The notes under the pieces: generated by a model | Databases searched by the model: none | The model's input: only the letters and a program-made list of their open reading frames with translations | What the model was told of the DNA's origin: nothing | IMG/VR virus record: IMGVR_UViG_3300009079_000101 | Location: 1-27,018 of that record | DNA from: a virus | Lineage: Duplodnaviria; Caudoviricetes | Length of the DNA: 27,018 nt | Reading direction: 5' to 3' (one strand) | Shown here: positions 1-26,890 of the stretch, piece by piece | Numbering within the stretch: the first letter of the stretch is position 1 | How the letters are laid out: each line of letters starts with the position of its first letter | Translations under genes and position numbers: made by a program

Positions 1-1071
1 CATTGGATTAGTCATCCCTCCACTTGAAACGGTTGCCCAACTTGTCGTTGTTCCGTTTGTGGTTAAGTATTTACCACTATTGCCTGTTTGAGATGGTAAT
101 AATCCATCGGCAGTGTAAGTAGGGATATTTAGTGTATTGCTCACAAAAGTAGCAGAACCACTACTACCTGTTGTTGTGAGTGTAATTTGCGCTTGTGGTG
201 TATATCCTAAAATCGTGGCAATTGTTTTATTCTTCCATAATGAAGTAGAACTTTCATAGGTTAGAATATCGTTGTTTGTAGGAGTGGCAATAGCAACATC
301 ATGTAATTCGTCTAATTCATAGCCATTTTGAATCCGTAATACTATTGTTCCATTTGTCGGTGATGTTCGCGTAACTACACCAATATAAACAAGATGGTTA
401 GGTGCTGATGGTTTTACATTTGTAACATACCCTGCGTTATTTGGATCTAAATATAATTTATCACCATCTGATAATGTGACAGCAGTAATTGGGTGTGGTG
501 CTGTTGTCCGTGTATCTAAATTATCAACAAATCCTGCGCACATTACATACCCATCCGTATTATTAGGCATATCAACTAAAACCATCCCAAATGTACCTGC
601 TGATGTTGATTCAGCATTGGCTCGTGATAATGTAAAATTAGGTCTATTACCTGTTGAACCACTAATATAAACAATTGAACCTTTATATAAGGTTGCTCCT
701 GTTGAATTTCTCCCTAAAATAGTAATCCCTTCTGCTTTGTCAACCACCCCTGAATTATCCGTATCATAAACGGACTTCAACATCACATCAGTGAATAATA
801 CCCCACTATCTTTAATTAATTTGCCTGTTGTTCCATCAAATAGAACCACATCGCCATTTACGGACGAAGCAGGACCAACGACATCCCCAATCACTAAAGG
901 AATGGTTGGTTTGTTTTTAATGTAAGCGTATGATGTAATATCCGTTTCCGTCCAATCTGCTTGTACCTGTTCAGGTAAATCAGCATAATTCAATTTTTGA
1001 CGCGATAATTCCACCAATTTATTTTGGATGTATTGGAAGGAATAAACAGGATATACTTTTTGCGTTGACAT
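1..1071 (-). CDS. Tail fibre / receptor-binding protein, 3'-truncated at the window edge (absent from the ORF track)
   Basis: Manual translation from ATG at 1071 gives 357 open codons to base 1 (MSTQKVYPVYSFQY...). It carries motifs typical of phage fibres: VQADWTETD..AYIKNKP, GDVVGPASS..FDGTTGKLIK, LKSVYDTDNSGVVDKAE, IQNGYELDELHDV, LPSQTGNSGKYLTTNGTTTSW. Confidence 0.8.
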   Translation of the reverse strand, partial: MSTQKVYPVYSFQYIQNKLVELSRQKLNYADLPEQVQADWTETDITSYAYIKNKPTIPLVIGDVVGPASSVNGDVVLFDGTTGKLIKDSGVLFTDVMLKSVYDTDNSGVVDKAEGITILGRNSTGATLYKGSIVYISGSTGNRPNFTLSRANAESTSAGTFGMVLVDMPNNTDGYVMCAGFVDNLDTRTTAPHPITAVTLSDGDKLYLDPNNAGYVTNVKPSAPNHLVYIGVVTRTSPTNGTIVLRIQNGYELDELHDVAIATPTNNDILTYESSTSLWKNKTIATILGYTPQAQITLTTTGSSGSATFVSNTLNIPTYTADGLLPSQTGNSGKYLTTNGTTTSWATVSSGGMTNPM

Positions 1072-3239: not shown

Positions 3240-4264
3240 TACATTCTTGATTCACGTACTTGATATGGATAATTGCACTCAATACAACAATTGCGCAAAC
3301 TGATTTCTATTCCATCCAACGCATTGGATAAACGCTTTTCATATTCCACTTGGAAGATGGCACGTAATTCTTCAGCATCTGCACGTTTAACGGTTGTAAA
3401 TTCATTTAATCGGTCAGAATAGGCTGTTTCAACCATCAATTCCGTACCTAATAGGTATAAGTAAGCATCCGCAAAATTCATCTTGTTATCGCAAACAATA
3501 CCATCATAAGAACAACCGATACTGAACACGCCTGTTAATCCAAATGTGTCCCAATTTTGATCATAAATAGTCGCATCTGCTCCGTGTGATTCAATACCAT
3601 ACAACATCGCGCGACAATTTGGTCCATAAAGGAATAATGAACACGATTGACATAAGCCATAAGCCGCTTGTGGAATTGGTAAACTAACGCTATCCAATCC
3701 ATTCGCATCATAATAGCACATTAATGCAGTAGTACGGAATGATTGATTTACGTTAATATCTTGCCATCCTGTTGTTGTAATGGTAATGTATTTGCTCCAC
3801 ATTGCCTCCCCTGTTTCTTTGTTCACAATTTGAACTAAAACAGGATTTGCAGGGATATTATCTGCATACAACGATAGGCTTTGAACGCGTATATGTTGTA
3901 ATTGTGTTTCTGCTAATTGGTTGCCATTTGGCACATATCCTAAATCTACACTAAAGCCACGATATTGTGTGCTTGTTGGTGTAGTTGCTACCGCAGGATT
4001 AAAACGCTTGCCCAAATTTATGGATTGCGTAATGGTTTTTAACTTGTAACGCTTCTTTAGGTAGTTGATAATGTCTTGTTGAATCTTCAAACCTGCACGT
4101 GCTTCAACTTCCTTAAATACCTCCACAAAGGTGATTTGTTCAGAATTGGCAATCATATCAATGCTCTGCAAGGTCACGCCTGGCAACGAATTGATGTATA
4201 AACCGCTTTCGCTTTCCGCGCCCTGACATCCTTTAACCCCTATGAAACCTTCAAAGCAAGACAT
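3239..4264 (-). CDS. Putative head-tail adaptor with an inserted beta-rich domain (341 aa)
   Basis: First gene after the capsid; helical N- and C-terminal parts; SDRLN motif and C-terminal CCIEC. Confidence 0.45.
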   Translation of the reverse strand: MSCFEGFIGVKGCQGAESESGLYINSLPGVTLQSIDMIANSEQITFVEVFKEVEARAGLKIQQDIINYLKKRYKLKTITQSINLGKRFNPAVATTPTSTQYRGFSVDLGYVPNGNQLAETQLQHIRVQSLSLYADNIPANPVLVQIVNKETGEAMWSKYITITTTGWQDINVNQSFRTTALMCYYDANGLDSVSLPIPQAAYGLCQSCSLFLYGPNCRAMLYGIESHGADATIYDQNWDTFGLTGVFSIGCSYDGIVCDNKMNFADAYLYLLGTELMVETAYSDRLNEFTTVKRADAEELRAIFQVEYEKRLSNALDGIEISLRNCCIECNYPYQVRESRM

Positions 4265-6884: not shown

Positions 6885-6892
6885 CAAAAGTA
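6885..6892 (-). promoter_or_regulatory. -7 box TACTTTTG driving the scaffold/capsid operon
   Basis: Exact TAnnTTTG match in a divergent intergenic region. Confidence 0.7.
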
Positions 6893-6900
6893 ATTTAGGA

Positions 6901-6932
6901 TTTGGATAATTGATAGGTTGTTTTTATCTTTA
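6901..6932 (+). promoter_or_regulatory. Promoter TTTG-N20-TATCTTTA for the thyX cassette
   Basis: -33 TTTG at 6901-6904 and -7 variant at 6925-6932, with Bacteroidota-type spacing. Confidence 0.6.
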
Positions 6933-6959
6933 CGGAACCAAATAAACCAAAGCAACCAA

Positions 6960-7577
6960 ATGAATAAAGTTGAATTAATAGGTCACTATGGCAATGACCA
7001 AATCCACGCACAATCTGCCTGGACTTCCACAAGTAGAGATTTAACAATAGAAAAAGTTGAACGCATCCCTGCTTTGTTGACTATGTTAGCAAAGGAAGGA
7101 CACCACACGCCATTTGAGAAAAGTAGTTTGCATTTTTTAGTAACAGTTGATCAAGCAACACACATCCATTTGTTAAAGCATCGCATAGGTGTGAGCATCA
7201 ATGGTGAATCTGCGCGATATAAGGAACTAAAGGAAGATAAACATTATATGCCTGAAGATTGGAATGAAAAATGGACAAATGCGCTGTTTACTTATACCAA
7301 TTTAGGCAATACACTATATCACGAATGCTTGGCTGATTTAACCCCTATTTTAGGTCGCAAAAGAGCAAAAGAATCCGCACGATTCTTTAAGACAATGAAT
7401 TCGCAGATTACTATGGATATAATGTTCAATTGGCGCAGTTTTGTTCACTTCCTGCACCTTCGTGATTCTGAACACGCGCAGGTTGAAGTACGCAATGTGG
7501 CTCGGCAAATGTTGGAGCAGGTAAAAGCAATCAATGGCAACCCATTTGAATTTACAATTAAAGCATTTAACTTATGA
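6960..7577 (+). CDS. thyX: Flavin-dependent thymidylate synthase (205 aa; start revised to ATG 6960)
   Basis: GHHTPFE, KHR-x8-SARY (variant of RHRx7-8SxR), NWRSFVHFLHLR and HAQVEVR motifs. Confidence 0.9.
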   Translation: MNKVELIGHYGNDQIHAQSAWTSTSRDLTIEKVERIPALLTMLAKEGHHTPFEKSSLHFLVTVDQATHIHLLKHRIGVSINGESARYKELKEDKHYMPEDWNEKWTNALFTYTNLGNTLYHECLADLTPILGRKRAKESARFFKTMNSQITMDIMFNWRSFVHFLHLRDSEHAQVEVRNVARQMLEQVKAINGNPFEFTIKAFNL

Positions 7578-7765
7578 ATTCACACCTCCTTCAATCCGTT
7601 ATTAGCGATTTAGAGAGCAGAGAGCAACGCGGAATAGCAAAATACAACACCACGATGGACCGAAGCGATTTAACGCATAAAGAGTGGCTACAACACGCAT
7701 ACGAGGAAGCATTGGATATGGCTTTGTACTTAAAGAAAGCAATCAATGAATCAGAATCTAAATAA
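7574..7765 (+). CDS. Small phage protein, possibly an all-alpha NTP pyrophosphatase (MazG-like)
   Basis: KYNTTMDR...WLQHAYEEALD..LYL with an EExxD motif; overlaps the thyX stop by 4 nt. Confidence 0.5.
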   Translation: MNSHLLQSVISDLESREQRGIAKYNTTMDRSDLTHKEWLQHAYEEALDMALYLKKAINESESK

Positions 7766-7802
7766 TTTCATTTCAATTTTAAACCTTCAAACAAACAATC
7801 CA

Positions 7803-8066
7803 ATGTCAGTAGAACTAAACCAAAAACCCGAACCTGTATTTGCAGATGGCATCTTATTTAAGCGCAGTCCAAATGCTCCTGATTTTGTAATCGGTCAAAT
7901 GTCCTTCAAAGTGGAGGAAGCCATTAATTTTTTGAAAGCCAATTCGAAGAATGGATGGGTGAATGTGGATATTAAGCGTGGTCGCTCGGGTAAGGAATAT
8001 GTGCAACTAAGCACTTACGAACCAAAGCCAAAACCAACTACTTCACACGATGATTCACCATTTTAA
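7803..8066 (+). CDS. SSB-like protein (87 aa; start revised to ATG 7803)
   Basis: Beta-rich core and acidic-aromatic C-terminal tail DDSPF; A-rich leader before ATG 7803. Confidence 0.5.
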   Translation: MSVELNQKPEPVFADGILFKRSPNAPDFVIGQMSFKVEEAINFLKANSKNGWVNVDIKRGRSGKEYVQLSTYEPKPKPTTSHDDSPF

Positions 8067-8334
8067 TTCACAACAATGTCAGTTCTGCCATTCCGCAATG
8101 AGTGGCAGAAAGGACAAAAAATATTGTTCAAATAAATGCAGAAATATGGCTAACAATGGCAAATCTGATATTAACGATAGTCCAATCAAAATAAGCATTA
8201 CCCTGAAGAATGTTCCGCAGGACATCTACTGCTTGTTGCTGGACAAACAAACCGAAATTAAGAAGAAAATTGGTGGTAACTTTGGACTTGAAGCAACCAT
8301 CTACAAATTATTGCGCGAAGCAGTTAAAAACTAA
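8050..8334 (+). CDS. Zn-finger plus ribbon-helix-helix-like putative regulator (94 aa)
   Basis: CQFC...YCSNKC, then ISITLKNVPQDIY...LEATIYKLLREAV, which resembles Arc/FitA-type RHH domains. Confidence 0.5.
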   Translation: MIHHFNSQQCQFCHSAMSGRKDKKYCSNKCRNMANNGKSDINDSPIKISITLKNVPQDIYCLLLDKQTEIKKKIGGNFGLEATIYKLLREAVKN

Positions 8335-8337
8335 TCT

Positions 8338-8541
8338 ATGTTAGACTACGAAAAAATGGATATTAATACTCTTAAAATGCTGTTTGATGAGTATAAAAAA
8401 ATGGAAAATAACAAAAGAGCAGAATTACGTGTTATAACTGCTGAAATTGAATTAATAGAAGCATTTTTAGACCATGCATCAAAATGTATATATAAAGCAG
8501 AACAATTTGTTAAAATAGAAAACGAAAAACCTAAACAATGA
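8338..8541 (+). CDS. Hypothetical coiled-coil protein (67 aa)
   Basis: Tightly packed in the operon; ATGA overlap with the next gene. Confidence 0.6.
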   Translation: MLDYEKMDINTLKMLFDEYKKMENNKRAELRVITAEIELIEAFLDHASKCIYKAEQFVKIENEKPKQ

Positions 8542-8915
8542 GCAAACTATCAACTTTTATTAAGTCTTTTGGCTCTGCACTAGCATCCTCTATGGAAGAT
8601 GCAGATTCATTAGCAGTAACGCGTATTTCTACTCCACAGGTTGAGAAAGTAGACAATTATTTGGGCAGTATGACGATCAAAAAAGGTCATACCTTATTCA
8701 AGATTGAAACAAGCGATGAACCTGCTGATGGATTTATATATCATTCTCCGACTTGTACCTTCATTAAGATAGAAAAGCATAAGCGTGAATTGAATGACAT
8801 TGGAAATATCATTGCTGAATTAAAACAAGGTCATTTGTATGTATCAGCCTTGAATGAGAAGAATGCGTTGAAATGGTATGCGAAGAACTTTTCTTCGTTA
8901 GCCTGGAAATCTTGA
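8538..8915 (+). CDS. Hypothetical protein (125 aa)
   Basis: Last gene of the plus-strand cassette; overlaps the convergent minor head gene by 18 nt. Confidence 0.6.
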   Translation: MSKLSTFIKSFGSALASSMEDADSLAVTRISTPQVEKVDNYLGSMTIKKGHTLFKIETSDEPADGFIYHSPTCTFIKIEKHKRELNDIGNIIAELKQGHLYVSALNEKNALKWYAKNFSSLAWKS

Positions 8916-20592: not shown

Positions 20593-20600
20593 CAAATATA
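20593..20600 (-). promoter_or_regulatory. -7 box TATATTTG driving the tail-tip/portal operon
   Basis: Exact TAnnTTTG match 18 nt upstream of ATG 20574. Confidence 0.7.
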
Positions 20601-20631
20601 CTTATTCACATCAATTAGTGGAAAATAATTG

Positions 20632-20639
20632 TATTTTTG
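20632..20639 (+). promoter_or_regulatory. -7 box TATTTTTG for the candidate small RNA
   Basis: Exact TAnnTTTG match 5 nt before the first hairpin; no plausible plus-strand gene follows. Confidence 0.55.
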
Positions 20640-20643
20640 TTAC

Positions 20644-20714
20644 GCATTGCGGGGTGGTAGCCGTAGTGGTTGGTTATTGGGAAAGGGGGTGCAGAAATGT
20701 GCCTCCTTTTTTTT
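20644..20714 (+). ncRNA. Candidate ~70 nt small regulatory RNA
   Basis: Promoter box, hairpin CAUUGCGG/CCGUAGUG, unpaired GUUGGUUAUUGG and terminator hairpin. G-U pairs in both stems indicate a plus-strand transcript. Confidence 0.6.
20682..20714 (+). terminator. Intrinsic terminator GGGGGTGCA-GAAA-TGTGCCTCC-T8
   Basis: GNRA loop, three G-U pairs and a U8 tract; oriented opposite to terL. Confidence 0.8.
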
Positions 20715-21954
20715 ATTTAGCCTTCAGGAACCATCCCATAAAACTATTGCACCAATATCTGAACGTATCTAACGCATCCGCTTGTTGGCTTAAATCCGCA
20801 CGATTGCTCTTTTCAATCTTGCCATCCTCACTGATTTTCACGTTCTTCAGGTCATAAATCAATGCTTTTGCTTTTTTATCCTGGATTTGCACCCCATAAT
20901 TGGCTAACAAACTATTCACTAATACCTGATTCTCTTGAATTGGTGGATTTATAATCGGTTGGCGCATTTGTCCACTACCTAAACGCAATCGGGTACGAAT
21001 AACAGTATAATAGTTCAAATTGTCCTTTACTAATGCTGATGTGTTTCTTCCTGTAGCATCCCCTGTGACAATGTATAGACAATTTGGGTAGTATGATAGG
21101 ATGTAATCACATAATGCGTAAATGTCGGAATTTTCGAGCTTGATGGTTTCCAATACCCATATGGTCCTATCGTAATGCTGGACAACACTACACGAAATGG
21201 GATTCTTGTTAAAGTCAAATGATAGGTAAACAGGCTCATTTTTATTAAGGTTGATTGGTTGATCAGTAATGTGCTTTTTGCTATCAAATGCAAATGCCCA
21301 TAGCATTCCTTTCAAGTCCACATCCTCTGCCAAATATTCGCAACGGAAATAAAGGTCACTCATTGTTCGCCTGGCTGAATCTACCTCGCTTGATAGGATA
21401 TGCGGATTGTCATAAGTTGTAAACGTCCACGATTGCCATTCGTGGCTATATTCTTCATTATCCTTCAATCGACACAATTCCTTGAAATAGGTATCGCCAA
21501 ATTTAGGGGTGGATAGAAACCACGCATCCCCAACATAGTCGGTTAGTGTCGCACGGATGGTACCATTCCACGCCTGCTCTAACTTACGCGCCTTTTCGCA
21601 CTCATCAATCACCACGCGTTTGTACTTTCTGCCTCGTCCACTATCAGGCTCATCCAATGACCACATATCAATCACCCCACCTGTAATTAATCGTATTTGT
21701 TTCAACTGCTCATTCTTAGACGCAATAACTTCATAGCACGTTTCGGTTATTACGCGCCAAAAGTCGGATAAGTCCTTATAAGTTGGTGAATAGTATGCAA
21801 CAGGAAAGCCATCTAAAGCAGGCTCAATGATTAGTTCTTCTGCTAATGATGTCTTCCCAAATCTTCGACCACATTTTAGTACATTGAACCGCTTGGCAGT
21901 TTGAATGATGTGTTCCTGATTAACGTGCCTACTTTTTAATTTGACTGTCTTCAC
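20713..21954 (-). CDS. terL: Terminase large subunit (413 aa)
   Basis: Walker A CGRRFGKT, Walker B VVIDE, STP coupling motif, nuclease motifs FDFN, GDATG, DALDTFRY. Confidence 0.93.
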   Translation of the reverse strand: MKTVKLKSRHVNQEHIIQTAKRFNVLKCGRRFGKTSLAEELIIEPALDGFPVAYYSPTYKDLSDFWRVITETCYEVIASKNEQLKQIRLITGGVIDMWSLDEPDSGRGRKYKRVVIDECEKARKLEQAWNGTIRATLTDYVGDAWFLSTPKFGDTYFKELCRLKDNEEYSHEWQSWTFTTYDNPHILSSEVDSARRTMSDLYFRCEYLAEDVDLKGMLWAFAFDSKKHITDQPINLNKNEPVYLSFDFNKNPISCSVVQHYDRTIWVLETIKLENSDIYALCDYILSYYPNCLYIVTGDATGRNTSALVKDNLNYYTVIRTRLRLGSGQMRQPIINPPIQENQVLVNSLLANYGVQIQDKKAKALIYDLKNVKISEDGKIEKSNRADLSQQADALDTFRYWCNSFMGWFLKAK

Positions 21955-22204
21955 GAATTACTACAATTTTGTTATCGGTTACTGAAACATCGTTTTTCAT
22001 CTCGGTAGGTATTAGTTTCGATGCTATCTTGTAGAATTCGGTAGTGTTTTCTTTTGCCCAAGTAGTCAAATTTGCTCTTGGATCATCCTGAAGTTCTGAC
22101 ATAGTAGTTTGTACCATCTCTTTGAACTCCCTTGTTAATTTGCTGACTGCGCCTTTCGGTCTGCCTCCACGATTAATCGGTTGACCTTCTCCAAATTTTG
22201 CCAT
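21929..22204 (-). CDS. terS: Terminase small subunit (91 aa)
   Basis: F..GQ..N.GGRPKG N-terminal motif; overlaps the terL start. Confidence 0.75.
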   Translation of the reverse strand: MAKFGEGQPINRGGRPKGAVSKLTREFKEMVQTTMSELQDDPRANLTTWAKENTTEFYKIASKLIPTEMKNDVSVTDNKIVVIREDSQIKK

Positions 22205-22620: not shown

Positions 22621-22712
22621 TAATCGTCATTTAGGGATTTAAACAATAGGATTAGTCCAATAATTAGTAACACGGTGCTAAATTCTAATAAAATTATGAT
22701 TTGATTATCCAT
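22620..22712 (-). CDS. 30 aa single-TM peptide (absent from the ORF track)
   Basis: MDNQIIILLEFSTVLLIIGLILLFKSLNDD*; overlaps the endolysin stop by 8 nt and the VRR-NUC start via TAATG. Confidence 0.6.
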   Translation of the reverse strand: MDNQIIILLEFSTVLLIIGLILLFKSLNDD

Positions 22713-23193
22713 AGATTGCTTTCCATACGTTAGGGGTGTATTTAACATAGGTCATCTTACCTAATAAGTTGCGTTTTGCTACCCACACCTCCTTTCGGTT
22801 AGGCTTGGATGATGTGTAGGAACAATGAATCCATTTAGGCTGTCCATTTAGGTAATCCTCAGCAATTAATTGATCAAATTCGACATTATTCAATAGAAAC
22901 AGGAATAATTCCTTGTTTGATTTGCCATTTGTCATTACAAGGTCCAATGCTTCGCCTTTTGTATGTTGGCTTGTTGGCTCTCCTCCTATCGCTGTATTCA
23001 ATTTTGGGCAACGATAACCACTACTGATGATGATTGGAACACCAAAATGCTCTCTTGCTGGCTCAAATATCTTTTTAGCAGTGACTAACAAATTGGCTAA
23101 CGCTTCCTTTGTAGGGGTGTTATCAATTCCTTTGCGCAATGCTGTACCGCTATGCGTCAATTCTGCGAGTGATAAGTGAGTGCTTACTTGCAT
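22705..23193 (-). CDS. Endolysin, peptidase M15 family (162 aa)
   Basis: ISSGYRC..LN..IGG..TSQH.KGEALD...WIH zinc peptidase motifs. Confidence 0.9.
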   Translation of the reverse strand: MQVSTHLSLAELTHSGTALRKGIDNTPTKEALANLLVTAKKIFEPAREHFGVPIIISSGYRCPKLNTAIGGEPTSQHTKGEALDLVMTNGKSNKELFLFLLNNVEFDQLIAEDYLNGQPKWIHCSYTSSKPNRKEVWVAKRNLLGKMTYVKYTPNVWKAIYG

Positions 23194-23882: not shown

Positions 23883-23894
23883 ATTATTGGTTGG

Positions 23895-24857
23895 TTAAAA
23901 AAGTTTGGTTTGATTTAATAATGGTTGTATGCGCTTGTTGGCAATTTTGATATATTCTTCACTCATTTCACTACCGATGAATTGTCTATTGGCTCTGATG
24001 GATGCAATGGCTGTGCTTCCACTACCCATAAAAGGATCATAAATAATACCACCTTCAGGACATCCTGCTAAAATTGGTTTACGGATTAATTCATCATTAT
24101 ATTGAGCATAATGCTTTTCTCCGCTTGGTTTTGTATTTATATCCCAAAAATCAGCAACATCGCCTGGATTTTTGCCTAATGGATTAGAATATTTTTCTTT
24201 GCTTTGATACCTTGTTATTTTGCCAATTCTTCCTGCTTGTGCTGTGAATTGTGGCGTATTTTCTCCTTCAAATTCAACTTTGCTTTTAAAATTATCCCTA
24301 ATTATATCCAAATCAAAAAAATACTTCTCAGATTTTACCAAAAAAAAGAAATATTCGTGCTTTTTGCTAAATCTATCCGTTACACTTTCAGGCATTCCGT
24401 TTCTTTTTGCCCAAATAATATCATTTCTAACTATCCACCCACGTTCAATACAACCTATTGCAAATCTATGAGGAATTAATAAAAGACATTTATTTGGCAA
24501 ATTTTTAGGCTTAATTAATTTACCTGATTCACCTCTATTCGTTAAGTAAGTAGATTCAGAATTAAATTTATTCCCTTTTGCAATTGCTAAATTAGTTCCA
24601 CTTTGTGTTGAAAAACTATCACCTAAGTTAATCCATACTGTTCCTGATGGCTTTAATACACGATATATTTCATCCATCATTTCCCAAAGATGTTCAAGAT
24701 ATTCTTGGAAGGTTGGCTCTAATCCCCATTGACCTTCATATCCATAATCACGCAGTTGCCAATAAGGTGGTGATGAAATAACACAATCAATGGAATTATC
24801 TTCCATTTTTTTCAATGTTTCAAGACACGGTTCTTGGTAAATTTTATTTGTTTGCAT
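23895..24857 (-). CDS. DNA amino-methyltransferase, beta class, probably N4-cytosine (320 aa)
   Basis: Catalytic SPPY motif precedes the SAM-binding DPFMGSGST; no cognate restriction enzyme is recognisable. Confidence 0.9.
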   Translation of the reverse strand: MQTNKIYQEPCLETLKKMEDNSIDCVISSPPYWQLRDYGYEGQWGLEPTFQEYLEHLWEMMDEIYRVLKPSGTVWINLGDSFSTQSGTNLAIAKGNKFNSESTYLTNRGESGKLIKPKNLPNKCLLLIPHRFAIGCIERGWIVRNDIIWAKRNGMPESVTDRFSKKHEYFFFLVKSEKYFFDLDIIRDNFKSKVEFEGENTPQFTAQAGRIGKITRYQSKEKYSNPLGKNPGDVADFWDINTKPSGEKHYAQYNDELIRKPILAGCPEGGIIYDPFMGSGSTAIASIRANRQFIGSEMSEEYIKIANKRIQPLLNQTKLF

Positions 24858-24874
24858 TTTGTTTTGGTTATTGG

Positions 24875-26890
24875 TTAAAATCTAAATGGATTATCAACAT
24901 CAGGCACTCCATCACCATCCTCATCCTCAAAATCTAACTGCTCGCGCTGATACGTTGGTGTAGGTCGATTCATTGCTTCCTGCAAAGTAATAACGGAAGA
25001 TTTTAGGCTTTCAGGCATATTTTGACTGCCTCTCAAATAGGCAATAAAAGAATAACCATCCATATCTTCAAATCCAACTACCCCTTTGCGTGAACGTAAT
25101 TTAACAGGATTCTCAAATGGTGTAACCTGCCCCCCTGTTTCCGTTTCTTTTACCTTTCTAATATGCAATTCGGTTATGTTGTATGCTTCGATGTTCCCCA
25201 CTAAACGATGAATCGTAATAAATTCATCCGCTTTGTTGGCAAATTTGTTACCTCCTTCCGTATCTGATTTGCCTGGAGCAGGAATATCTCCCTTTCCAAA
25301 TCCGCGACCTGCTGAAGATACCACGTGCATATTAATGTAAATGGATAACTTGTGCATCTTAGTGAATAGTTTTATTTCACTGATGGCTCGGTAATGATAT
25401 TCGTGCGTATTCAACCCTGCTTTTGGATTCAATGTGATGTCTAACGCATTGTATGGATCAATCAGTAAAGAATGATATTTGCTATGCTGTAATTCATTTT
25501 CAGCGATGGCAAGAATGTCTTTATAATTGTACATTTCCTTATCTGACTTGATAACTATGAAATGCTTTTCGAGAAATTCCAATGCTTCATTAATCATATT
25601 ATCAGGCATCCCTTGAATTTCCATGCACCAATATAATTCAATCATCTTACGAAAAAAGGAAAATTCATCATTCTCTGCAGTATAGATTAGCCACTTCCAA
25701 TTATGGCGAATGGAGGAAAGCAAAGCCATATACCAAATCATTACCGACTTTCCTACGTTGTCGAATCCATTAATAATGACCAAATTGCCTTGCTTAAATC
25801 GGAAGTGCTTGTCAATTTCAGGATAGCCTGTGTCTAATCCCATTTCATACTTCCCATCTCGCCATTTCATAATGTTCTTGTAGTAATCCTCACGCTTGAC
25901 TAAATAATCGCGATTGTCAGGCTGTATGTTTACTTTGGTTGTGATGGTTAATGGTTCAGGTTGAACGCTAATGGTTTTATTTGTGTCCTTTTCACCATAT
26001 CCTTCTGCCATTAATTTACGTGCAGATGTTTGAAAATCCCCATTGCATTCCAACATCGCGTACACTGCGGATGGTTTGTAGCCTCGTTCAGGATCAAAGA
26101 TGGAAGATGTGGTGAATACGCTAAATAAATTCAAAGATGAATCATAGTTCCCTGATGTTTTAGCATCCGTTGAACCTGGACGCAAAAAGAATGTTTTAGT
26201 TCCTCTTGTTTCTACAATGCTCCATCCGTGTGACTGCAATAATCCTATGACATCCCCACGATTATCGTAATCTTCCCAAGATGCCAATCCTTTAATCTTG
26301 ATTTGCTCCGTCTTTTTGTATTCAGTAACTTCCTTGAATACTTCGTTAAACCTTCGTGCAATATTGTGCAGTAGCATTCGTTGGTCCACTCGGATAAGTT
26401 GAATATTATCCAAACCCCCTTGCACCATTTCATAGCCTGGCGATGGATGAACTGCTATTTGCCCACCTTCACCGCGTGTTTCAATTAATACCTTTATTTT
26501 ATCGCCATTTTCAATTTCTTCAATGGTTGCGTGACGCTGTGCTAACTTTAGATTTCCTTCAAAATATTTGCAACGATAAATGTAGTGAAATCCTCCATTC
26601 TTTGTCTTTTGAATGGTTAGCAATGGGTAAATGGTTGCATCCTCTTTGTTCAGGATTGAATTAAATCGTTTGATTAAATCGCCTGTGATGTCATATTTTA
26701 GGTCAAAGTCAATGACTTCCACCCCATCTGATAATTTACCACAAACTAAGCCAACGGAATGCGTATCTAATTCAAATTGCTCCGTGCTTGTTTGCCATCC
26801 TTTTGCTAATGGCTGTTTTTTGTCATTCAGTGGAATAAATTTGCAGTTGGTAATCTGCTTTAAATGGTTGTAGTTATTGGTTGTTCTCAT
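24875..26890 (-). CDS. Bifunctional primase-polymerase fused to an SF4 (DnaB/gp4-like) helicase (671 aa)
   Basis: N-terminal prim-pol motifs IDFD, T.NGG.HY, IETRGEGG; C-terminal Walker A GFDNVGKS, LLIDPYN, NKADEF. Confidence 0.8.
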   Translation of the reverse strand: MRTTNNYNHLKQITNCKFIPLNDKKQPLAKGWQTSTEQFELDTHSVGLVCGKLSDGVEVIDFDLKYDITGDLIKRFNSILNKEDATIYPLLTIQKTKNGGFHYIYRCKYFEGNLKLAQRHATIEEIENGDKIKVLIETRGEGGQIAVHPSPGYEMVQGGLDNIQLIRVDQRMLLHNIARRFNEVFKEVTEYKKTEQIKIKGLASWEDYDNRGDVIGLLQSHGWSIVETRGTKTFFLRPGSTDAKTSGNYDSSLNLFSVFTTSSIFDPERGYKPSAVYAMLECNGDFQTSARKLMAEGYGEKDTNKTISVQPEPLTITTKVNIQPDNRDYLVKREDYYKNIMKWRDGKYEMGLDTGYPEIDKHFRFKQGNLVIINGFDNVGKSVMIWYMALLSSIRHNWKWLIYTAENDEFSFFRKMIELYWCMEIQGMPDNMINEALEFLEKHFIVIKSDKEMYNYKDILAIAENELQHSKYHSLLIDPYNALDITLNPKAGLNTHEYHYRAISEIKLFTKMHKLSIYINMHVVSSAGRGFGKGDIPAPGKSDTEGGNKFANKADEFITIHRLVGNIEAYNITELHIRKVKETETGGQVTPFENPVKLRSRKGVVGFEDMDGYSFIAYLRGSQNMPESLKSSVITLQEAMNRPTPTYQREQLDFEDEDGDGVPDVDNPFRF

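Follow-up and report, generated by a model that had tools for sequence, protein, structure and literature searches.

Regulatory RNAs closest to the locus

Small RNAs carried by phages are, as far as the accessible parts of the literature describe them, mostly directed at host genes or at a single phage transcript. SviR from the PLE satellite, VpdS from VP882 and PreS from lambda are, in the accessible descriptions, trans-acting RNAs with several targets, some of them phage mRNAs, and the c4 antisense RNA of P1 and P7 is reported in the available text of PMC12197685 to pair near ribosome-binding regions of phage mRNA, with complementary sequences that are likely positioned in loops. In Bacteroides thetaiotaomicron, according to the accessible portions of the two reports, the FopS sRNAs are ~65-70 nt long, are made from canonical sigma-ABfr promoters and act as repressors that base-pair where translation of the target initiates (PMC11697453), and GibS uses two seeds, R1 and R2 (PMC7366714).

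The locus considered here lies in the window, by which is meant the entire 27,018-nt stretch of phage DNA that was analyzed (IMGVR_UViG_3300009079_000101, positions 1 to 27,018). Its candidate RNA shares with FopS and GibS, as these are described in the accessible text, a canonical TAnnTTTG promoter, a predicted length of ~65-70 nt and an intrinsic terminator, and with GibS also the presence of two seeds. FopS and GibS are chromosomal with host metabolic targets, FopS being multicopy, whereas the phage RNA is phage-borne, single-copy and predicted to have targets in its own genome; their seed is an unstructured 5' end of another sequence, whereas one seed of the phage RNA is located in a hairpin loop. 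The R1/R1' seed consensus of FopS/GibS, as given in the available part of PMC11697453, is absent from 20644-20714 when compared by eye. With c4, as far as its available description goes, the locus shares its phage origin and a pairing sequence in a loop (here of a predicted structure), but c4 acts on a single transcript, ant, from the immunity region of a temperate phage, whereas the phage RNA matches 11 of 23 dispersed early starts. SviR, VpdS and PreS come from proteobacterial systems; VpdS and PreS bind Hfq, and most PreS targets belong to the host. In their accessible accounts none of the three is described as using a tag common to start codons of the phage itself.

The locus had been put forward in a first-pass annotation as an RNA of no recognized family, and this agrees with a search of all families of Rfam 15, including C4, which gave no match in the window at the gathering threshold, the best sub-threshold match being CsrC with 15.6 bits versus the 61 needed. 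Conserved single-stranded seeds complementary to several distant mRNAs, by which trans-encoded sRNAs are generally recognized, are predicted here. Judged from its sequence, the putative RNA is one that would work like GibS/FopS or c4 but belongs to neither. In a literature search covering mainly openly readable journals and main texts, no description was found of an sRNA from a Bacteroidota phage that is directed at start codons of the phage itself. The terms Bacteroid, Flavobacter and crAss are absent from the main text of a 2025 review (a supplementary table of which lists 38 uncharacterised sRNAs), and in the accessible part of PMC10367356 the relevant terms occur in the reference list only.

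The phage genome, its relatives and its host

The window constitutes most of one tailed-phage genome and encodes a portal, terminase, tape measure, tail fibre, endolysin, thyX, a DNA methyltransferase and a primase/helicase. It is 99.99-100% identical to a record designated G001, which contributes an extra 8.3 kb of presumed early genes, and a second near-identical record, L203, extends it by 1.4 kb and supplies the gene of a winged-helix protein of 84 aa. A relative, G002, shows 87-93% DNA identity, and the window and G002 combined appear to cover the whole gene circle. The early and structural gene classes used throughout were assigned by inference from gene function and position. Among annotated phages no record covers the element, the best one covering 23% of the query, and the best match of terL is ~30% identical.

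The host of the phage is probably a member of the Bacteroidota, as suggested by TAnnTTTG boxes in front of several genes and by the relatives of two of its proteins: the sole relative of terL in the genome collection sits in a Chitinophagales MAG (50%), and RecT has two named relatives, one from Arachidicoccus (62%) and another labelled Sulfurimonas. To our knowledge, Bacteroidota hosts lack Shine-Dalgarno signals and Bacteroides lacks Hfq.

Within the structural region a block of six genes including thyX (window 6918-8915, plus strand) is inverted, and its first leader overlaps the divergent promoter box of a 141-aa gene at 6892. Two enzymes are swapped between the window and G002: an N6/N4 methyltransferase (window 23895-24857) is replaced by an unrelated C5 enzyme (L163:4693-5865), and a peptidase-type endolysin (window 22705-23193) by a glycosyl hydrolase 108 (L163:3484-4032).

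Architecture of the candidate RNA gene

The features of the locus are as follows.

20632-20714, plus strand: whole unit (promoter box, hairpin, linker, terminator), occupying the space that separates the terL stop from the 123-aa gene
20632..20639, plus strand: Bacteroidota -7 promoter box of the TAHHTTTG type, TATTTTTG, by consensus match
20644..20714, plus strand: candidate sRNA, ~70 nt, with ends predicted from box, fold and terminator
20645..20668, plus strand: hairpin 1, with an 8-bp stem whose sequence varies and whose pairing is kept
20653..20660, plus strand: candidate seed 1, hairpin loop GGUGGUAG, complementary to CUACCAC tags just in front of the start codons of six early genes
20667..20680, plus strand: candidate seed 2, U/G-rich linker, complement of five non-structural start regions
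20685..20714, plus strand: intrinsic terminator, on the plus strand only, its T run overlapping the terL stop codon
20601..20631, no strand: conserved block between back-to-back promoter boxes, with invariant alignment columns
20593..20600, minus strand: divergent -7 box of the 123-aa gene in the virion/tail block, also conserved in G002 and L205
20203..20574, minus strand: 123-aa gene, function unassigned, with no PHROG or Pfam family; downstream neighbor
20713..21954, minus strand: terminase large subunit (terL; phrog_2, E 2e-30), upstream neighbor of the candidate sRNA gene

The candidate gene lies on the strand opposite to both terL and the 123-aa gene. Upstream of its -7 box no -33 box is recognizable, and promoters of F. 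johnsoniae, as described in the accessible part of PMC6847099, have the -7 consensus with 4-5 nt spacing to the start and a -33 box that is also weak. From that spacing transcription is predicted to begin at 20644-20645, which is the base of the hairpin. The plus strand of 20645-20714 folds at -30.1 kcal/mol (z -5.6, with none of 200 shuffles as good), versus just -8.7 kcal/mol (z 0.2) for the minus strand of 20640-20716. The window contains a single TAnnTTTG box with a strong terminator behind it, and such a combination turned up in 2 of 100 triplet-shuffled windows.

The coordinates of the first-pass annotation for the promoter box (20632-20639), the stem (20645-20668) and the terminator, which comprises a stem with a GAAA loop at 20685-20706 and T8 at 20707-20714, proved correct, and its claim that the stems fold on the plus strand is borne out both by the z scores and by the pairs themselves, all 50 of which are canonical on that strand over three copies, with 10 G-U and no A-C pairs. 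Its unpaired linker at 20667-20680 holds as an exposed stretch, but in the predicted fold the strictly unpaired part is limited to 20669-20678, the 14-mer borrowing 2 nt on each side. A plus-strand RNA gene at this position is predicted with high confidence. Two other candidates for the gap between terL and the 123-aa gene were rejected: a minus-strand or bidirectional terminator, as the minus strand there has no terminator, and a minus-strand peptide, as the 10-codon ORF of the window and G002 shrinks to a start-stop in L205. The 31-nt block 20601..20631 between the back-to-back promoters is a possible shared regulator site.

Conservation across relatives

In the DNA downstream of terL in 33 loci, a unit is present in L001 (the same phage), G002 (L002) and L029 and absent from 30, about 20 of which form one closely related group. 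A third clear copy was found in the metagenome contig L205, in which the neighboring proteins are 55-71% identical, so that the clearly homologous copies are three only, two of them close. The unit is single-copy in the window, G001 and G002, which contain no multicopy paralogues, a second unit in the early block being different in sequence.

Between the window and G002, 7 of 75 positions of the unit differ, five of them in stem 1, one in the terminator stem and one in the tetraloop; the absence of changes in the loop or linker amounts by itself to only about p 0.09. The promoter box is kept in G002 and also in L205, where two free positions are changed. In L205 the hairpin stem is replaced and the GTGGTA (GUGGUA) loop, invariant in all three copies, is retained at the same 14-nt distance from the box, the whole loop reading UGUGGUAA. 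Should the two-seed model be true, early starts of the L205 phage, which lie outside the L205 contig, are predicted to carry UUACCACA-type tags. Covariation of the stem, which had been named as a check, was found for helix 1, in which five of eight pairs are changed on both sides and 95.8% of cells are paired, on three copies only. The terminator tetraloops of the three copies are GAAA, GCAA and cUUCGg, and together with the stem pairs they form a pattern that is, on comparison of the copies, that of a plus-strand RNA. Conservation of the linker, also named as a check, held in part: unchanged in G002, it is altered in L205, the most distant clear homologue, and hence not invariant.

A unit with the same layout behind terL and a different sequence is located at L029:7206-7312 on the minus strand (the same as L207), with a promoter box one base short of the consensus. 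A covariance model built from the three copies recovered only those copies from 56 sources, the L029/L207 unit at the syntenic place scoring 18.5 bits (E 2.5), below significance. Further homologues were also sought by sequence patterns. A loose linker pattern (3 of 64 parts scanned) returned among 119 loci a single one with box and terminator, L096, of another sequence; an 11-nt linker pattern gave 35 loci which, beyond G001 and G002, were chance matches or members of one unrelated family; a loop pattern (23 of 64 parts scanned) found G002 alone among 117 loci; and a promoter-block pattern found G001, G002 and two matches without hairpin or terminator.

The hairpin loop and a heptamer before early start codons

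The GUGGUAG of the loop is perfectly complementary to CUACCAC. Counted on both strands, all six copies of CTACCAC in the 8.3 kb of early genes added by G001 are positioned 1-4 nt before an ATG.

L162:14487, 14750, 16765, 17027, 18113 and 19349: CTACCAC tags at six early starts

Three other copies, within the window, lie away from starts, and three of the five non-self copies in G002 are located at starts. When all 7-mers in the 20 nt preceding 50 start codons are ranked, CTACCAC comes joint first (6 genes, all early), and 7-mer counts along the RNA peak only at the loop (6) and the linker (2-4). It has to be noted that the tagged leaders of the 69-aa and 77-aa genes look duplicated, so that the independent tagged leaders number five of six.

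CTACCAC precedes an ATG in none of 53 copies in 39 terL-related loci without the unit and in 7 of 136 copies in 80 unrelated viral loci, and among 81 viral loci picked by one tag, at least three tags are found in G001 and G002 only. In 121 bacterial genomes of the likely host phylum, CTACCAC-N-ATG occurs 543 times, which is of the same order as a reversed control, the largest count in any one genome being 28 versus 14 in that control. The loop tag is, on this comparison of sequences, private to this phage lineage.

These findings bear on a model of action in cis, in which the RNA is fully antisense to terL read-through and trims or uncouples the packaging and virion messages, or in which the terminator stops antisense transcription, the start-codon matches being a by-product. 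Such a model would fit with the unit filling the gap between terL and the 123-aa gene, where the minus strand has no terminator, and with the L029 unit of different sequence at the same place; yet the conserved loop, which is needless for cis pairing, is the invariant part, the lineage-private tag is left unexplained and the 123-aa gene has a promoter box of its own. Action in cis is therefore judged improbable.

In one gene compared in three genomes the tag reads CTACCAC, CTACTAC and TTACCAC, all of which can pair with the loop through G-U. Both variants at that gene are C-to-T changes, and C-to-T is also the commonest mutation. In L335 the tag is retained in a leader that is otherwise different. 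The leader of the 233-aa gene near RecT contains both tags in the order of the complement of the RNA, and it gives the best cofold, at -16.6. The loop duplexes comprise only 7-8 bp at -9 to -11 kcal/mol, in an 8-nt loop, and loop-only targets reach -6 to -9 by cofolding without pseudoknots, a calculation that cannot form loop contacts.

The order of the tags in the 233-aa gene leader is also shared by the minus strand of the element, where in the window and G002 a 10-codon ORF follows them, as would be expected if the tags were recognized by a protein of the phage, such as a nuclease or translational repressor like T4 RegA/RegB, and if the element were an inverted relic of an early leader or a minus-strand decoy. 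However, the ORF is reduced to a start-stop in L205, the non-Watson-Crick pairs and the tetraloops all favor the plus strand, and a relic would not retain compensated stems, which leaves a protein-read tag quite improbable.

The linker and its predicted targets

The linker was compared with the start regions from -25 to +25 around start codons, a match being a perfect linker complement of at least 8 nt. Such matches occur at 5 of 19 non-structural starts, versus 0 of 27 in the structural block and 1 of 435 coding windows, the five starts being those of the methyltransferase, the 200-aa gene, the primase/helicase, RecT and the 233-aa gene near RecT. This result is equaled by 0.4-2.5% of 3000 shuffled seeds and by 0.05-0.2% of 2000 shufflings of the start regions, and among 17,596 genomic 14-mers 0.5% match as many starts as the linker, the equally good 14-mers among those listed being mostly T-rich and from the strand opposite to the genes. 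The difference in helix energy between early and structural genes reaches only p 0.07. The individual sites are listed below.

24864..24874, minus strand: predicted target, N6/N4 DNA methyltransferase, -17..-7, 11 nt; best site genome-wide
23888..23897, minus strand: predicted target, 200-aa gene, -15..-6, 10 nt; 12 perfect nt in G002
26865..26880, minus strand: predicted target, primase/helicase, within its first codons; duplex of 8+6 nt interrupted by a 2-nt bulge
8032..8042, plus strand: possible target overlooked in the first-pass annotation, 94-aa gene of the thyX block (start region), from the accessibility-weighted scan and cofolding
21970..21984, minus strand: upstream of the terL start, weaker wobble-containing match; the one structural-block gene scoring high (-13.4)
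6936..6959, plus strand: thyX leader with AACCAA repeats, unsupported as a target; 6-nt perfect match, helix -6.0
903..911, minus strand: tail-fibre CDS, 9-nt linker match, 160 nt inside the CDS, treated as chance

The perfect complements that the first-pass annotation had reported at the methyltransferase (11 nt) and the next gene (10 nt) were both recovered, as was its bulged 14-nt match in primase/helicase, and the enrichment at start codons over shuffled controls that it had asked for is seen in the counts given above. Its broader claim of complementarity to the phage's own gene starts stands as exceeding chance, but its set of targets was too narrow, missing RecT, the 233-aa gene and the loop seed. 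The thyX leader does not survive as a target, since its site falls outside the 30 best accessibility-weighted sites. The 9-nt match in the tail-fibre CDS that had been raised as a caveat is present, and it too lies outside those 30 sites.

A U/G-rich linker can pair with many A/C-rich leaders, and by a top-5 measure about 16 of 3000 shuffled linkers score as well. This would be expected of an RNA that, as FopS, mainly hits host mRNAs, its phage matches arising from the A/C-rich starts of Bacteroidota genes. Against it, the structural genes of the phage, which are also A/C-rich, have no long match in 27 starts, and the loop tag is not enriched before ATG in the 121 genomes of the phylum; host mRNAs as the main targets are very improbable.

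Matches are retained where the surrounding genes have changed. The leader of the unrelated C5 methyltransferase of G002 still pairs with the linker over 13 bp with one G-U, so that tags or sites survive gene swaps, as also in the leader of L335. The linker of L029 pairs over 14 bp (one G-U) with the leader of its own methyltransferase at L029:4180, with 9 of 400 shuffles as good, and the seeds of the window RNA score lower on L029 leaders than on their own. The L029 unit nevertheless pairs equally well with a start region of the window phage and is thus cross-reacting; L029 was for that reason rejected as proof of seed-target co-variation, which is only weakly indicated by the sequences compared.

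Both seeds in a genome-wide scan

Counting at least 7 perfect bases with the loop or at least 8 with the linker, and including the 84-aa winged-helix gene from L203, the two seeds combined match 11 of 23 presumed early genes. An accessibility-weighted helix scan of 36,626 sense-strand bases returned 433 sites, and start regions account for 11 of the top 20 (7% expected), early genes for 10 of these 11; the other nine lie away from starts. Because start regions are open and thereby favored in a scan of this type, the loop and linker were shuffled with the stems fixed, which gave a mean of 3.6 starts, with 1 of 150 shuffles reaching 11 starts and none of 150 reaching 10 early genes. The RNA is considered likely, as a prediction, to pair with the phage's own early leaders.

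Proposed mechanism

In the model considered here, which we regard as reasonably probable, the phage sRNA would pair with two start-codon tags via its loop and its linker, jointly lowering the translation of early genes. Host polymerase would make the ~70-nt RNA from about 20644, presenting the two seeds, which would bind at about -18 to -2, or just after the start in the case of primase, in the phage's own messages for early functions, recombination, methylation and replication. Adenines at -3, -6, -12 and -13 promote initiation in F. johnsoniae, according to the accessible text of PMC6847099, and as the tags cover -3 to -13, positions used by Bacteroidota ribosomes, repression would be the expected sign.

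The position of the sRNA promoter back-to-back with the promoter of the virion block, across the conserved 31-nt block, suggests that the two are jointly controlled, and makes the damping of early genes as late expression begins the most likely role. This late shut-off is the weakest step of the mechanism and ranks below the claims for the existence of the RNA and its pairing, the arrangement of the promoters being what suggests it. A wider proposal, which has to be regarded as speculative, is that a lytic phage makes its early-to-late switch by RNA alone, with private tags and a two-seed 70-nt RNA turned on with the virion genes so that the whole set is silenced, and that this RNA belongs to a class of phage master-regulator RNAs that is widespread and as yet undescribed.

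The main rival, relative to which action in cis, a protein-read tag and host targets explain less, keeps the same RNA and the same pairing and differs in purpose: made at once from a host-type promoter, the RNA would repress early genes while the phage persists in a carrier state or when a sibling superinfects. The promoter box is of the housekeeping type, the targets are the genes needed first and c4 of P1/P7 offers a precedent. On the other hand, the proteins scanned (33 against PHROGs; 23 and 26 against Pfam) included no member of an integrase, repressor or antirepressor family, and hence no counterpart of the antirepressor mRNA that c4 controls in its immunity region, and the window and G002 together appear to cover the entire gene circle. 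A plasmid-like state of the phage may exist, and a winged-helix protein without an assigned role is encoded. A role in dormancy or immunity is considered unlikely.

Should early-gene repression through the two tags be true, roughly half of the early genes would share an address system and form a phage-internal regulon at the level of translation, which would show how Bacteroidota phages could time their program; the 7-nt tag could also serve as a compact translational switch for Bacteroidota genetics.

Other RNA-like units and genes

A second sRNA-like unit occurs in the same lineage (L163:9303-9378, plus strand; L203 ~258-335, minus strand; L334 ~3360-3438, minus strand), antisense in the early block and directly behind the winged-helix gene. 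It consists of a TAnnTTTG box, hairpin, short linker and terminator, differs in sequence from the first unit and shows, over three copies, differences compatible with pairing; by eye, its loop could pair with the linker of the first RNA. The L096 unit (301-367, plus strand) is short and FopS-like, with a TAnnTTTG box, a stretch antisense to an ATG-containing motif, and a terminator. An unrelated family of ~90 nt (L164:3001-3095 and L166, L167, L169, L171, L175-177, L182, L185, L188, L191 and L192) has an invariant U/G-rich core and a co-varying terminator; its contigs have no match to the phage's proteins, and the surroundings in L164 resemble those of a cyanophage genome. In L335 the interval from the winged-helix gene to the next early gene (~2088-2170) contains a stretch that looks tRNA-like by eye, within a spurious 73-aa ORF. 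Finally, L162:18124-19997 encodes a DUF3440/PAPS-reductase gene followed by a gene without a Pfam match, a pair which we take to be IbrA/IbrB-like and which is present in G001 and was not seen in G002; both genes carry the CTACCAC tag.
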